NCBI GenBank assembly: GCA_964510585.1 | Contig: CAZECW010000206.1 | Coordinates: 1-5,156, forward strand | DNA from: an uncultured archaeon | Lineage (GTDB): Archaea > Asgardarchaeota > Jordiarchaeia > Jordiarchaeales > Jordiarchaeaceae | Reading direction: 5' to 3' | Length of the DNA: 5,156 nt | Shown: in pieces, positions 1-5,156 of the stretch | How the letters are laid out: every line of letters starts with the position of its first letter | How positions within the stretch are numbered: position 1 is the stretch's first letter | The notes under the pieces: model-generated | Database searches by the model: none | What the model was told of the DNA's origin: nothing | Seen by the model: only the letters and a program-made list of their open reading frames with translations | Position numbers and translations under genes: made by a program

Positions 1-115
1 AGAACAGGCAATCTTGTACCTCTCCTTCTCATAGGCAGCAATAACGTCTGGAGGGCCAGCCTTAATTTTGTCCCAGTCTGGAAAATCAAACCACATCTTA
101 TCATAGTGCAGACAG
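1..115 (+). repeat. Terminal direct repeat, copy 1 (circularisation or assembly overlap)
   Basis: Bases 1-115 (agaacaggca...gtgcagacag) are identical to 5042-5156 by direct comparison. The repeat lies inside a coding sequence, which is typical of a contig-end overlap rather than a biological terminal repeat. Confidence 0.98.
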
Positions 116-1251
116 GTTTTAAGAGCATCCTCTATTGGCCAAACATGATCACTACCTATGAGATACGCGTATTTTCCATGTGCCTGAAGCAGTATGTCTG
201 CATGGCGTCTTAAGTCTCCGCCTGTGATTAGTGTTCCTCCCGGCGGCCAGTGCACCTCTTTACAAAGCTCCACGTGGTACTGTATCAGGTCTGCAGTCAT
301 GTCAGTACCCATCACGTTTATGCCGTCGCAGAAGAACATTATGTCTGTGCCTGCGTCCCTCACTGCTCTGTGGTGCCTGATACAGAACCTGAGAGCCTCC
401 CTCATACACATGTGCAGCCACTCTGGATTACGTTTGTACATCAGAGCTCTTTCCCTATGTCCCAACGTGGGTCCGATGGCACCACCTGCAGTGGAGAGGG
501 GACCCACGCAGGTATTTGTCATGAGGGGCATGACTCCCCAGAGCCCAGCTCTTCTGAGATACTCTTTAATAAATTTGATCTCCCACAACTGCATGGCGTA
601 GGCTCCATAATCCGCTTCGGGTACTTTATGTGAAAGGAACGGCGCTGTTCTGAAAGGTAGCCATGGAACTTGGAATCCGGTTTCCATTGCTCCGGCGCTT
701 CTGCACACGGGAGCAGAGGTTTCCTTAAGATAAACGTGACCACCGTACTCTGCTTCTCCGTAAGTGATTTTGTGAATGAAAACTATGTCTGTTGCAAACT
801 TTGCCACGGCCATATTTGACGCTATAACGTGTAGCTTAGGATACCTGTGAAAATCAACACTCTTCAGTATTACTCCATAGGCGTCTAGAATCCTGGGGGC
901 GTTAGTGGCCATAGCGTAGAGTCCCCCCATTACTGGGCAGCGGTCCCTTTCAACGCCGTAGGCGGTTGCCCAGTACCTGTCTAAGGGAGTCATCTTCTCC
1001 TTAGCTATGTTCTCATGCATCTTAAGCATTATCCTCTCCATAATTAGTAATTCCTCTTCTGACCATTCTGGGGGTTTGAAGTTCCAGTACCAGTCTGGTA
1101 TTTTCAGCTTCTCCCAAATTTCCCATTCTTTGTATGCGTAATCGCACCAGTCCGCGGCCTTTTTCCCTCCGGCTTCCGCCGGCTTTTCCGAAACGGTTGT
1201 GTAGGGTTCTGGTTTCTTATACCAGGATAGGTATTCTTCACCCTCGGGCAT
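1..1251 (-). CDS. URO-D/MtaA-CmuA superfamily corrinoid-associated methyltransferase-like protein, residues 1-417 of 458 (continues across the overlap to 4916)
   Basis: Manual translation from ATG at 1251 is open with no stop to base 1 (MPEGEEYLSWYKKPEPY...KERYKIACS). It is absent from the ORF track, presumably because it runs off the window edge. GAGGTG RBS at 1258-1263. MTPLDRYWATAYGVERDRCPV (from residue 87) matches the family N-terminal MTPxER...GxxxDRxPV motif. It starts 22 bp downstream of a corrinoid protein gene. Confidence 0.88.
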   Translation of the reverse strand, partial: MPEGEEYLSWYKKPEPYTTVSEKPAEAGGKKAADWCDYAYKEWEIWEKLKIPDWYWNFKPPEWSEEELLIMERIMLKMHENIAKEKMTPLDRYWATAYGVERDRCPVMGGLYAMATNAPRILDAYGVILKSVDFHRYPKLHVIASNMAVAKFATDIVFIHKITYGEAEYGGHVYLKETSAPVCRSAGAMETGFQVPWLPFRTAPFLSHKVPEADYGAYAMQLWEIKFIKEYLRRAGLWGVMPLMTNTCVGPLSTAGGAIGPTLGHRERALMYKRNPEWLHMCMREALRFCIRHHRAVRDAGTDIMFFCDGINVMGTDMTADLIQYHVELCKEVHWPPGGTLITGGDLRRHADILLQAHGKYAYLIGSDHVWPIEDALKTCLHYDKMWFDFPDWDKIKAGPPDVIAAYEKERYKIACS

Positions 1252-1257
1252 TTTCCA

Positions 1258-1263
1258 CACCTC
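1258..1263 (-). promoter_or_regulatory. Ribosome-binding site GAGGTG
   Basis: Minus strand reads GAGGTG-TGGAAA-ATG(1251). It sits in a 22-bp intergenic gap, consistent with an operon. Confidence 0.8.
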
Positions 1264-1273
1264 AAAAACCCTT

Positions 1274-1918
1274 TTAGGCCTCCTCCATCAGTTCTGTGGC
1301 TAGCTGCACGGCTGCCAGTGCATCCCGTGCAAAGTAGGCACCTATGGCCTTGGCGTACTCGGGCCCAGTCGCCCATCCACCAATCATGTACTTGACGGGT
1401 AGCTTCTCCCTCTCAATCATCTCCTTGAGGGTCTTCAGCTTGTCCAGACAGCCGGTTATCGCGGAGGCTGCGCCTATGATGTCTGCATTTTTTTCTTTGG
1501 CAGCCTGAATGAACTTTTCCAGAGGCACGTCCTCTCCCAGGTCGGTGACCTCCCAGCCTGCAGATTCAAACATTGTCACCACAACAGATTTCCCTATGGT
1601 ATGCAGGTCTCCCTCCACCATTCCAATAACTAGTTTGCCTGCCACCTCCGACTTTTCAGCCTTCAGGTGGGGCCTTATAACCTCAAGCACCGCCTTCATG
1701 GCCTCCCCAGCCATAAGCAGATCAGTGAGTGAGGCTCCTCCTAGGCCTGAGGCGTACATTTCTCCAGCCTTCATCATGCCTGGAGTGCATCCCTTGTTCA
1801 ATATGTCGATGGCCGAAATTTTCTTAGCAAGCGCCTGCTTGGCGAGGTCCGCTGCGAGCAAGTCGTCACCATCAACAAGAGCCTGGGACAACCTCTCAAG
1901 CAACTCCTTCTCCGACAC
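1274..1918 (-). CDS. Corrinoid (B12-binding) methyl-carrier protein, MtaC/MtbC/MttC-like, 214 aa
   Basis: N-terminal helical cap domain followed by a Rossmann B12 domain. GKLVIGMVEGDLHTIGK contains the DxHxxG motif (His106, 1601-1603), followed by DLGEDVP..KFIQAAKE..ADIIG and MIGG. GTG start preceded by GAGGGAT (1922-1928). Confidence 0.95.
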   Translation of the reverse strand: MSEKELLERLSQALVDGDDLLAADLAKQALAKKISAIDILNKGCTPGMMKAGEMYASGLGGASLTDLLMAGEAMKAVLEVIRPHLKAEKSEVAGKLVIGMVEGDLHTIGKSVVVTMFESAGWEVTDLGEDVPLEKFIQAAKEKNADIIGAASAITGCLDKLKTLKEMIEREKLPVKYMIGGWATGPEYAKAIGAYFARDALAAVQLATELMEEA

Positions 1919-1964
1919 AGCATCCCTCTACTGAGTTTTTGCTTTAAGTATTTTTTTTAACTTT

Positions 1965-1982
1965 TATTTAAAGTTTATTATT
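1965..1982 (-). promoter_or_regulatory. Putative archaeal promoter (TATA box TTTAAATA with A-rich BRE-like upstream sequence) of the corrinoid operon
   Basis: Minus strand reads AATAATAAAC-TTTAAATA (1972->1965), 46 nt upstream of the GTG. That leaves room for a short leader containing the RBS. The region is AT-rich, so chance matches are possible. Confidence 0.6.
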
Positions 1983-2119
1983 ATAAAAACAGATGTGGTG
2001 CAAGTTAGCTCGGCCGTGTGGCGCCTGAGACGGCTTTTTAAACGGATTGGTAGAGTTAAGTTAGTGGGTTAGGAATCTGATTAGTGTGAGTGCAACTTAG
2101 CCCTGAGATTGCTTGATTG

Positions 2120-4337: not shown

Positions 4338-4484
4338 GTGGACATCAGCCGTTTTCGCTGCCCGCACTGCGGTTCCTTCACTGTTGAAATTTTAAGGGAT
4401 GAACCTGTGATAACCGGCGTCTTTCGTATTTTCAAGTGTAAGAAATGTGGTAAGGAGTTTGGCAGATTTCTCGGTCAAGGCTAA
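4338..4484 (+). CDS. Small zinc-ribbon protein, at least 48 aa (CPHCG...CKKCG); start uncertain
   Basis: Manual translation from GTG 4338: MDISRFRCPHCGSFTVEILRDEPVITGVFRIFKCKKCGKEFGRFLGQG. Its TAA (4482-4484) overlaps the TAG of the convergent SCP2 gene (4481-4483). The frame is open back to 4260 with no ATG. Confidence 0.72.
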   Translation: MDISRFRCPHCGSFTVEILRDEPVITGVFRIFKCKKCGKEFGRFLGQG

Positions 4485-4882
4485 CTGGACTCTCCTTTAT
4501 ATTTAGGATGTCCCGGAGGATAGTACGGTTCGTAGGACGCGAATGTCTTGTATCTCTGAAGGACGGCGACGTCGCCCTTAATTTTCATTTCACCCGAGTA
4601 GTACTTTTCAGCCAAATCAACTTCCTTAGTGTGCTGGCCTACCCAGTCATCACTAGTCATGATTACAACAGCGTTGACATCTGTGGGCTCCCTTGTAACA
4701 ATTTCTGAATCTTCGAGTATCCCGTCCTCCTTAAACTTAAGCAGGTATCCGCGGTTAAGATCCCTCATCCAGAAACACATTTTAAAGGGTTCCCAACCTT
4801 CTCCGTAACCCTCCTCAGATAAAGCCTTCATCCTTTTAACGCTGTGATGAAAGCACGCATCAGCCTGCTCTATTGTAGCCAT
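4481..4882 (-). CDS. SCP2 (sterol carrier protein 2)-like lipid-binding domain protein, 133 aa
   Basis: VIMTSDDWVG...VDLAEKYYSGEMKIKGDVAVLQRY matches the SCP2 signature (..D...+..G.LD...A+MSGKLKI.GD...L.K). Preceded by GGAAGTGTGGTG and starts 33 bp after the methyltransferase-like gene's stop. Confidence 0.8.
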   Translation of the reverse strand: MATIEQADACFHHSVKRMKALSEEGYGEGWEPFKMCFWMRDLNRGYLLKFKEDGILEDSEIVTREPTDVNAVVIMTSDDWVGQHTKEVDLAEKYYSGEMKIKGDVAVLQRYKTFASYEPYYPPGHPKYKGESS

Positions 4883-4915
4883 TGCACCACACTTCCTTTA
4901 ACAAGAAGCTAATTT

Positions 4916-5156
4916 TTATGGTTGTTCCCATCCCTTGGGGTAAGAGCCGTACTTTTTAGATGCGTCAACCCAGGCTTGATAGTGCTCCATAGGTATCCAG
5001 TAGTCACCGGGTCCAGGGTTCCAGTACTTGCTCTTGGGGTCAGAACAGGCAATCTTGTACCTCTCCTTCTCATAGGCAGCAATAACGTCTGGAGGGCCAG
5101 CCTTAATTTTGTCCCAGTCTGGAAAATCAAACCACATCTTATCATAGTGCAGACAG
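4916..5156 (-). CDS. C-terminal end of the same URO-D/MtaA-superfamily protein (unique part 4916-5041 = residues 418-458 plus TAA)
   Basis: In frame with 1-1251 across the overlap (ACS|DPK). KAGPPDVIAAYEKE...WNPGPGD...IPMEHYQAWVDASKKYGSYP matches the family C-terminus (GTPEEV...PGC...P.EN..A.V.A.K.YG.YP). The 73-aa ORF in the track is this fragment. Confidence 0.88.
   Translation of the reverse strand, partial: CLHYDKMWFDFPDWDKIKAGPPDVIAAYEKERYKIACSDPKSKYWNPGPGDYWIPMEHYQAWVDASKKYGSYPKGWEQP
5042..5156 (+). repeat. Terminal direct repeat, copy 2
   Basis: Exact 115-bp copy of 1-115. Unit length after trimming is 5,041 bp. Confidence 0.98.

Follow-up and report, generated by a model that had tools for sequence, protein, structure and literature searches.

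Which methylated compounds anaerobes can channel into the Wood-Ljungdahl pathway depends on their corrinoid methyltransferase systems, and few substrate classes are known. In the three-component systems represented by the O-demethylases MtvB/OdmB/VdmB, by MtoABCD and by CdmBCA (PDB 9rui; PMC13222342), the gene of an enzyme with the uroporphyrinogen decarboxylase (URO-D) fold adjoins the gene of its cognate His-on corrinoid protein, and a separate second methyltransferase (MTII) and a RACo-type activator complete the system. The substrate-side enzyme (MTI) of this fold can be free of zinc, as in CdmB, a scaffold with hydrophobic channels, and in Moorella MtvB as cited there; MtoA has been named the archaeal equivalent of CdmA (PMC13222342). 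MtaA, an MTII, and MtbA (PDB 4ay7) have the same TIM-barrel URO-D fold and work with a corrinoid protein, and their H-x-C...C zinc triad activates the thiol of coenzyme M (CoM). The Jordarchaeia and Freyarchaeia of the Asgard archaea are predicted to be non-methanogenic methylotrophs, with substrates that are largely guesses (PMC9723677, PMC11291895), and the organism considered here is without methyl-CoM reductase (PMC9723677). In this study, we analysed a 5,156-nt stretch of Jordarchaeia/Freyarchaeia DNA (the window; contig C206 from a bin of 217 contigs and 3.78 Mb), which carries a corrinoid-protein gene, most of the gene of a very divergent URO-D-fold methyltransferase (MT) and, towards its other end, a gene of the SCP2 family. 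The window is a linear piece of chromosome between two tandem paralogues, MT1 upstream and MT2 downstream, whose SCP2 genes are called SCP2A and SCP2B, respectively. No characterised corrinoid methyltransferase system is known to include SCP2, or the zinc-ribbon and lipoyl proteins that are encoded nearby.

The MT family is rare. A word-based search of 5.8 billion proteins returned six clusters, a profile search of 1.84 billion representatives gave 47 matches at E <= 0.001, and among 400 Asgard genomes MT was found in one genus (5/5) and in one distant relative. Against the Pfam URO-D model (PF01208), MT scores 17.8 bits (cut-off 23.9, E 0.0018) over residues 250-313 only, and relatives of ~400 aa that are 25-28% identical to it pass the same model with up to 94 bits. 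The AlphaFold2 model built from 26 sequences (pLDDT 81.4, pTM 0.83) retrieved HemE and MtaA as the top Foldseek matches (E ~1e-12), with a TM score of 0.83 and an E-value of 4e-12 to MtaA 4ay7; an earlier model from six sequences (pLDDT 45.5) was discarded. MtaA 4ay7 was also the best PDB match of the family profile (1.4e-20), and CdmB was matched at 2e-8, over the C-terminal half only. By its modelled fold and by transitive homology, MT is a URO-D-type TIM-barrel and a member of the superfamily lying below the sequence cut-off.

The corrinoid protein has a DxHxxG motif at residues 104-109 and scores 136 bits against NCBIfam TIGR02370, under the cut-off of 215.3. Its homologues, at 56-99% identity, sit immediately upstream of MT homologues. 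When the family is divided by identity to the window MT, a corrinoid gene adjoins MT in clades I (>=85%, the genus), II (~76%) and IV (54-58%) and in distant relatives, and is not beside the MT of clade III (~67%) or the MT2 of locus L080. A preliminary description of this DNA, made from the sequence alone, had proposed that a URO-D-fold methyltransferase is paired with a corrinoid protein, and the structural match, the profile match and the adjacency in most lineages bear this out.

None of the three ligands of the MtaA zinc triad (His-x-Cys ... Cys) has a counterpart in MT in the profile alignment to 4ay7: the His falls in an insertion of MtaA, and opposite the two Cys stand Ala/Gly columns (G344 and G427 as numbered in P0001). 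The wider family has no conserved Cys or His. An MtrH-type gene adjoins the homologues at L015 and L019, with a RACo gene in L019, and the genome of the window itself encodes four to six MtrH-type proteins (four full-length matches and two fragments) and two RACo activators, together with 18 URO-D-family matches and ~15 corrinoid-protein paralogues. The preliminary description had left the activator and the second methyltransferase to be supplied by a host; both are encoded in the same genome, and there is no separate element. Because MT is without the MtaA zinc ligands, because zinc-free MTIs have precedents, and because separate MtrH and RACo genes are present, we infer that MT is a substrate-side enzyme (MTI). 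The features of such an enzyme that were found are an adjacent corrinoid protein with a cap, a Rossmann B12 domain and the DxHxxG motif, and the availability of MtrH and RACo. The cassette would accordingly resemble the substrate-side half of an O-demethylase/MtoB/CdmB-type system, with the enzyme gene next to that of a His-on corrinoid protein, a separate MTII (here MtrH-type) and a RACo-type activator in the genome and beside homologues, and, as in CdmB and MtvB, no MtaA-type zinc site; it would not resemble an MtaA-type enzyme.

The differences from these systems are considerable, beginning with very little similarity in sequence. Unlike the O-demethylase, MtoB and CdmB enzymes, MT is under the Pfam cut-off and matches no NCBIfam model: no family was found at E <= 0.01 for the window MT, P0001 or P0005, and distant relatives reach <=54 bits against subfamily and equivalog models with a cut-off of 235. 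It has a conserved aromatic-rich N-terminal extension of ~55 residues, and it is accompanied by separate SCP2, zinc-ribbon and GcvH-like proteins. Compared with MtaA/MtbA, of which MtaA is the best solved match, MT is ~110 residues longer, gives no TIGR01463 or MtaA/MtbA equivalog match, and lacks any counterpart of the zinc triad.

The linkage between SCP2 and MT is strict in close relatives. In clade I, SCP2 lies 33-66 nt 3' of every MT end seen (six genomes and several metagenome contigs), and in clade II (L010, L081 and L082) the order corrinoid, MT, SCP2 is kept with SCP2 proteins that are 46-48% identical. The MT2-SCP2B pair of L080 is intact even though no corrinoid gene adjoins it, and in the single-copy G117 and L017 SCP2A lies between MT and the genes of the zinc-ribbon protein ZNR59 and the GcvH-like protein, in the same orientation and with 42 nt between it and the MT stop codon. 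The MT paralogues of one related species are 91% identical, and the two SCP2 types only 68%. Strong matches to this SCP2 subfamily were found in 6/6 genomes of the genus and in 0/394 other Asgard genomes, the genomes being related and the counts therefore not independent. Nine other SCP2 matches exist in the genome of the window, none of them near a URO-D or corrinoid gene. The placement of SCP2 after MT holds at every MT 3' end seen in the genus and in the ~76% clade and breaks down at <=67% identity, where SCP2 is missing.

The SCP2 proteins belong to a remote branch of their family. A six-frame search with PF02036 gave 26.0 bits for SCP2A and 24.6 bits for SCP2B, and close homologues in NCBI and nr are named 'SCP2 sterol-binding domain-containing protein'. 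The SCP2 profile has weak PDB matches (E 0.03-1.2), of which 9/11 are SCP2-fold proteins; the SCP2 domains of MFE-2 and hydratase-2 are among them, and so are UbiJ/UbiT (6h6n) and the C-terminal domain of the alkylsulfatase PSdsA (4nur). The latter two are the nearest functional analogies: as in the cassette, an SCP2-type module accompanies a soluble enzyme, and there it lets the enzyme handle hydrophobic substrates; their partners are SAM-dependent methyltransferases/hydroxylases or sulfatases, whereas MT would be corrinoid-dependent, and they resemble the SCP2 proteins of the cassette only marginally in sequence (E 0.03-0.3). A C-terminal motif of the PYYPPGHPK type is invariant in the alignment of the subfamily (A3). 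Literature searches found no paper that links SCP2 or sterol carrier proteins to corrinoid methyltransferases, in agreement with the earlier remark that SCP2 stands outside the characterised corrinoid systems.

Some SCP2-like genes were seen farther away. Locus L041 (191-616 and 697-2809), beside the distant URO-D relative P0009, has a 141-aa open reading frame (ORF) with a sub-threshold Pfam SCP2 match (16.8 bits) and a tandem second URO-D gene, which may be a weak hint of SCP2-like partners elsewhere in the wider family. In an hhalign comparison of the SCP2 profile with this ORF and a 134-aa one in L040, neither was significant. At four examined loci with distant SCP2 matches in other Asgard families, there was no corrinoid-protein or MT match; the neighbourhood of one of them, L047, contains peptidase and deacetylase-type genes.

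Structure prediction, in the pairwise test that had been suggested earlier, lent model-level support to binding between MT and SCP2. The complex was modelled for the SCP2B/MT2 pair and reached an ipSAE of 0.68 (0.69, 0.68 and 0.64 in three runs), with 0.00 for the best of three controls; the ipSAE mark is reached by 58/80 solved complexes and by 2/110 mismatched pairs. Contacts agreed by >=82% between runs, and the partner pLDDT was >=87 (87-89). The modelled interface joins invariant SCP2 residues to MT loops 312-318 and 344-346, which follow barrel strands, so that the predicted docking site of SCP2 is the C-terminal, catalytic face of the barrel, and MT 344-346 occupies the position of the MtaA H-x-C motif. 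To our knowledge, no SCP2/URO-D complex has been solved, and it therefore seems unlikely that the model merely reproduced a known structure. MT and SCP2 are likely a functional pair.

Several points weigh against this pairing and its interpretation. The complex score is the model's own confidence and comes from alignments that we built. Conservation of the MT residues at the interface does not exceed that of the remaining protein; when homologues with and without linked SCP2 were compared, these residues gave no separating signal, interface identity following overall identity. The modelled SCP2 also covers part of the face on which the corrinoid domain must dock. SCP2 is not beside MT homologues of ~67% identity (clade III, where corrinoid and SCP2 genes are both non-adjacent) or of 54-58% (clade IV, with corrinoid, MT and ZNR59 and without SCP2), and the MT family evidently can work without an adjacent SCP2, as judged from these neighbourhoods. 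In L040, from a more distant organism, a 55% identical SCP2 occurs with corrinoid, ZNR59 and lipoate ligase (LplA) genes and with beta-oxidation-type genes, and no MT is present in the 11.5 kb covered. SCP2B, finally, borders on its other side a cluster of acyl-CoA mutase (MM_CoA_mutase), DUF35 (zf-ChsH2/OB), SDR and two CoA-transferase (CoA_trans) genes.

Because no SCP2 is found beside MT homologues of <=67% identity, SCP2 is, by a refuting condition that the preliminary description had set and on present gene orders, not a core part; it was added in one lineage to a core that comprises corrinoid protein, MT, zinc-ribbon and GcvH-like protein. In the same comparisons, ZNR59 is the most conserved neighbour of the MT family, and ZNR59 and the GcvH-like protein, both left out of the preliminary description of the system, are more widely conserved as MT neighbours than SCP2. 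ZNR59 keeps 73-90% identity next to MTs whose own identity is only 54-86%; it occurs in clades I and IV and in L040, directly after MT in the clade IV loci L015 and L088-L090 and after the corrinoid gene in L040. GcvH-like genes adjoin MT-family genes in four separate contexts, namely the Jordarchaeia, the P0005 contig, the P0007 contig and the distant Asgard genome G002 (C1:1911913-1912302). The lipoyl lysine of the GcvH-like protein is retained and aligns with the lysine of the genome's own GcvH paralogues, and LplA ligases are encoded nearby on the P0005 contig and in L040. GcvH homologues in general do not accompany corrinoid genes: at the 25 examined loci with the closest homologues from other genera, neither a corrinoid nor an MT gene was present within 1.5 kb, and the link is thus visible from the MT side only. 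The Freyarchaeia paper mentions in passing that gcvH is near MttB, MtbC and MtrH genes (PMC11291895). A lipoyl protein may take part in corrinoid methyl transfer.

The other neighbours are also shared. Relatives of the second zinc-ribbon protein, ZNR48, were found by tblastn in L017 (81%), L080 (83%) and L040 (60%). Homologues of ORF159, a PD-(D/E)XK DpnII/MboI-like protein, are present in L017, L018, L038, L040 and L080 (41-71% identity in L017, L018, L040 and L080); it has an atlas score of 0.94 to DpnII-MboI clusters and no obvious methyl-transfer role. L040 (253-5391) groups the genes of LplA, corrinoid protein, ZNR59, an ORF159 homologue, a second LplA, SCP2 and a ZNR48 homologue with a second SCP2-like ORF, and the beta-oxidation-type genes follow. 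Membership is conserved there while the order is shuffled, which argues, from gene content, that the functional neighbourhood exceeds three genes.

Considering all the above results, we propose a plausible model in which the chromosome carries tandem cassettes, each of them the substrate-side half of a corrinoid methyltransferase system with a dedicated SCP2 subunit. This model as a whole, which builds on the established gene content, fold, neighbourhood conservation and linear tandem topology, has in our judgement about an even chance of being right. Each cassette would consist of a His-on corrinoid carrier, a zinc-site-free URO-D-fold MTI and an SCP2-fold protein of ~130 aa. MT, as the MTI, would pass the methyl group from the donor to Co(I), and SCP2 would most likely supply or extend a hydrophobic pocket or tunnel for the substrate, a lipophilic substrate being speculative. 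The methyl group would then move from CH3-Co(III) to tetrahydromethanopterin or tetrahydrofolate through one of the MtrH-type enzymes of the genome, with RACo-type activators, whose genes lie elsewhere, to restore oxidised Co(II). A fuller version, which appears unlikely to be correct, would make MT and SCP2 the two subunits of one MTI, with a lipophilic methyl donor reaching the corrinoid, or its product leaving, by way of the SCP2 tunnel. The zinc-ribbon and lipoylated GcvH-like proteins would in this version be working parts as well and might serve, for example, as a protein-bound dithiol acting as acceptor or reductant.

The same evidence can be arranged differently. The classical partners of SCP2 domains are thiolase, hydratase and dehydrogenase enzymes, and SCP2 might serve the adjacent acyl-CoA and lipid genes, its place after MT being inherited synteny with no function in common. 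The mutase cluster beside SCP2B fits this explanation, as do the MFE-2 and hydratase-2 domains among the PDB matches and the SCP2 homologue of L040 among acyl-CoA synthetase, MaoC hydratase and CoA-transferase genes. However, both duplicated cassettes have kept their SCP2, G117 and L017 keep SCP2A by MT with the mutase cluster ~5.5 kb off, L040 still has corrinoid, ZNR59 and ORF159 genes next to SCP2, and the complex model supports binding to MT against controls of 0.00; we regard service to the lipid genes as rather improbable. A purely structural or gating subunit, which for example shields Co(I) or controls corrinoid docking and carries no lipophilic cargo while MT uses an ordinary soluble methyl compound, seems to us improbable to a similar degree. 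It would agree with an interface on the catalytic side, to which the corrinoid domain has to bind, with a subfamily far from lipid-binding SCP2s (Pfam 26.5 bits; PDB profile E 0.03 or worse) that has its own invariant proline-rich motif, and with homologous MTs that seemingly function without SCP2; against it, the SCP2 fold is overwhelmingly known as a binder of hydrophobic ligands, and CdmB shows that a URO-D-fold MTI can channel hydrophobic substrates (PMC13222342). It is also quite improbable, in our view, that MT is an MTII methylcobamide:acceptor methyltransferase and the cassette the acceptor side, with a thiol acceptor that is possibly the dihydrolipoyl arm of the GcvH-like protein. The best PDB sequence match is indeed the MTII MtaA, and the recurrence of GcvH-like genes with the lipoyl lysine retained and of dedicated LplA ligases nearby is in line with this role, but all three thiol-activating zinc ligands are missing, no Cys or His is conserved family-wide, a separate MtrH-type MTII is encoded beside homologues, and 0/25 of the examined loci with the closest GcvH homologues of other genera have a corrinoid or MT gene within 1.5 kb.

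The arrangement of the genes has to be weighed in the same way, since the first and last 115 nt of the window are identical. Such ends, and the absence of a second MT body from the bin, would fit a closed 5,041-bp extrachromosomal or excised element with metabolic cargo and dependent on a host. The missing MT1 body was also sought through the synteny upstream of the G117 locus and was not located, the upstream genes being non-syntenic. Yet exact 115-mers are common to contig ends in 68 groups of the bin, and the terminal 115-mer of the window also opens a third contig end, that of C211; the terminal identity is therefore an assembler k-mer overlap, an artefact rather than circularity. A single MT body is present in the bin, against two MT tails, which are 97% identical, and two SCP2 genes, which are 68% identical (SCP2A at C206:4481-4882 and SCP2B at C211:306-698). 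Independent assemblies give the linear tandem order MT1-SCP2A-ZnR-GcvH-like-ORF159-COR-MT2-SCP2B, COR being the corrinoid gene. L009, a gap-free 3.6-kb contig without N from another sample and a 96-97% identical strain, carries the corrinoid gene, the MT body, the C211-type tail and SCP2B. L038, a 22-kb scaffold in which 100 N fall exactly on the shared segment, and L080, part of a contig of 119 kb, run from the MT1 tail through SCP2A, ZNR48, ZNR59, GcvH-like and ORF159 to MT2 and SCP2B, and in L039 (436 residues of MT1 visible), as in L080, MT1 is followed by SCP2A. The complete genome G117 has a single copy with corrinoid, MT, SCP2A, ZNR59, GcvH-like and ORF159 genes and, a few kb downstream of the cassette, a C211-type mutase cluster. 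These linear orders and the 115-mer shared with C211 identify C206 as linear chromosomal DNA that extends from the shared 115-mer of one tandem paralogue to that of the other. The window MT body most likely continues into the C211 tail and SCP2B, and SCP2A follows MT1; joining SCP2A to the window MT through the overlap, as the preliminary description did, is thus not upheld, as L009 joins the MT body to SCP2B. A Pfam scan of the window proteins found no replication or mobility gene. As a candidate, a circular element or small plasmid was rejected, with a junction that is not unique and is explained by assembly; we consider it extremely improbable, and the 'closed 5-kb circle' is removed as a false lead.

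If the favoured model is right, the cassette defines a very rare and very divergent MTI family with its own SCP2 partner. Should SCP2 handle the substrate, no earlier system of this kind would have a comparable accessory subunit for hydrophobic ligands, and lipophilic methyl donors would be indicated in the sediments of hot springs. The fuller version with a two-subunit MTI would amount to a corrinoid system whose components are without precedent among the characterised ones, and would open a new class of methylated substrates to Asgard archaea. The recurring GcvH-like and zinc-ribbon neighbours raise the question of a lipoyl protein in corrinoid methyl transfer.

Table 1. Features of the window (a point marks a feature without strand).
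Feature	Position	Strand	Remarks
Corrinoid protein, 214 aa, MtbC/MtgC/MtaC-like	1274..1918	-	Pfam B12-binding 67 bits and B12-binding_2 61 bits
URO-D-fold methyltransferase (MT), residues 1-417 of ~458	1..1251	-	MT2 by position (downstream paralogue)
Paralogous MT1 3' end, final 79 codons and stop	4916..5156	-	MT1 body missing from the bin
SCP2A, 133 aa, SCP2 family	4481..4882	-	33 nt 3' of the MT1 stop; Pfam SCP2 26.5 bits (cut-off 21.3)
ZNR48, four-cysteine zinc-ribbon, 48 aa	4338..4484	+	Convergent with SCP2A, overlaps the SCP2A stop codon
ZNR59, zinc-ribbon, 59 aa	3773..3952	-	Weak Pfam Zn_ribbon_13 match; look-alikes in the atlas
GcvH-like lipoyl carrier, 173 aa	3199..3720	-	Pfam GCV_H 73.6 bits
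ORF159, PD-(D/E)XK DpnII/MboI-like, 159 aa	2664..3143	+	Oriented away from the corrinoid gene; 26.5 bits in Pfam, under the cut-off of 27
Corrinoid-gene upstream region	1919..2011	-	TATA-like TTTAAATA and TTTTTATAA elements, GAGGGA ribosome-binding-site-like motif
115-nt assembler overlap	1..115	.	Identical to 5042-5156 and to the start of C211; codes MT residues 379-417, common to both MT paralogues

The three co-oriented genes of the preliminary description (corrinoid, MT and SCP2) exist as reported, and their order, corrinoid-MT-SCP2, is real and present two times. Their intergenic gaps of 22 nt (1252-1273) and 33 nt (4883-4915) were confirmed, and both contain purine-rich motifs resembling ribosome-binding sites. 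The MT ORF spans 1-1260 (-) and is open at the contig end, with a probable start at ATG 1251 behind GAGGTG. The TATA box that had been noted ahead of the corrinoid gene was recovered as the TATA-like element TTTAAATA, 46-53 nt 5' of the start, and this upstream region is conserved in relatives, up to position 1993 in L009 and up to 2011 in G119:C106.

Between the corrinoid gene and ORF159, positions 2252-2374 hold an AT-rich, partly palindromic repeat of 120 nt with ~25 further sites in the genome, on both strands and at 78-85% identity. Several copies are at contig ends; the repeat has the look of a miniature inverted-repeat transposable element or a repetitive extragenic palindrome (MITE/REP type) and is missing from the matching intergenic region of G119:C106.

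A different contig of this genome (G000:C62:51646-52338 and C62:53176-53628) has an MtrH-like fragment, interrupted by a TAG in frame, next to a URO-D match and a corrinoid paralogue. Jordarchaeia have been reported to recode stop codons. The nearest named loci to the window are those of Ca. Jordarchaeia QZM_A3, Ca. Jordarchaeum madagascariense and a complete Freyarchaeota chromosome, and the sequence is present in 8 hot-spring metagenome runs. In relatives, directly beyond ORF159, there is a radical SAM protein of 527-540 aa with an HMPTM N-terminal zinc-ribbon domain (L080:3092-4675 (-) and L037:11841-13463 (-)), which belongs to the family of the methanopterin-pterin methylase. In the genome of the window, this position is held by the second corrinoid-MT-SCP2 cassette.

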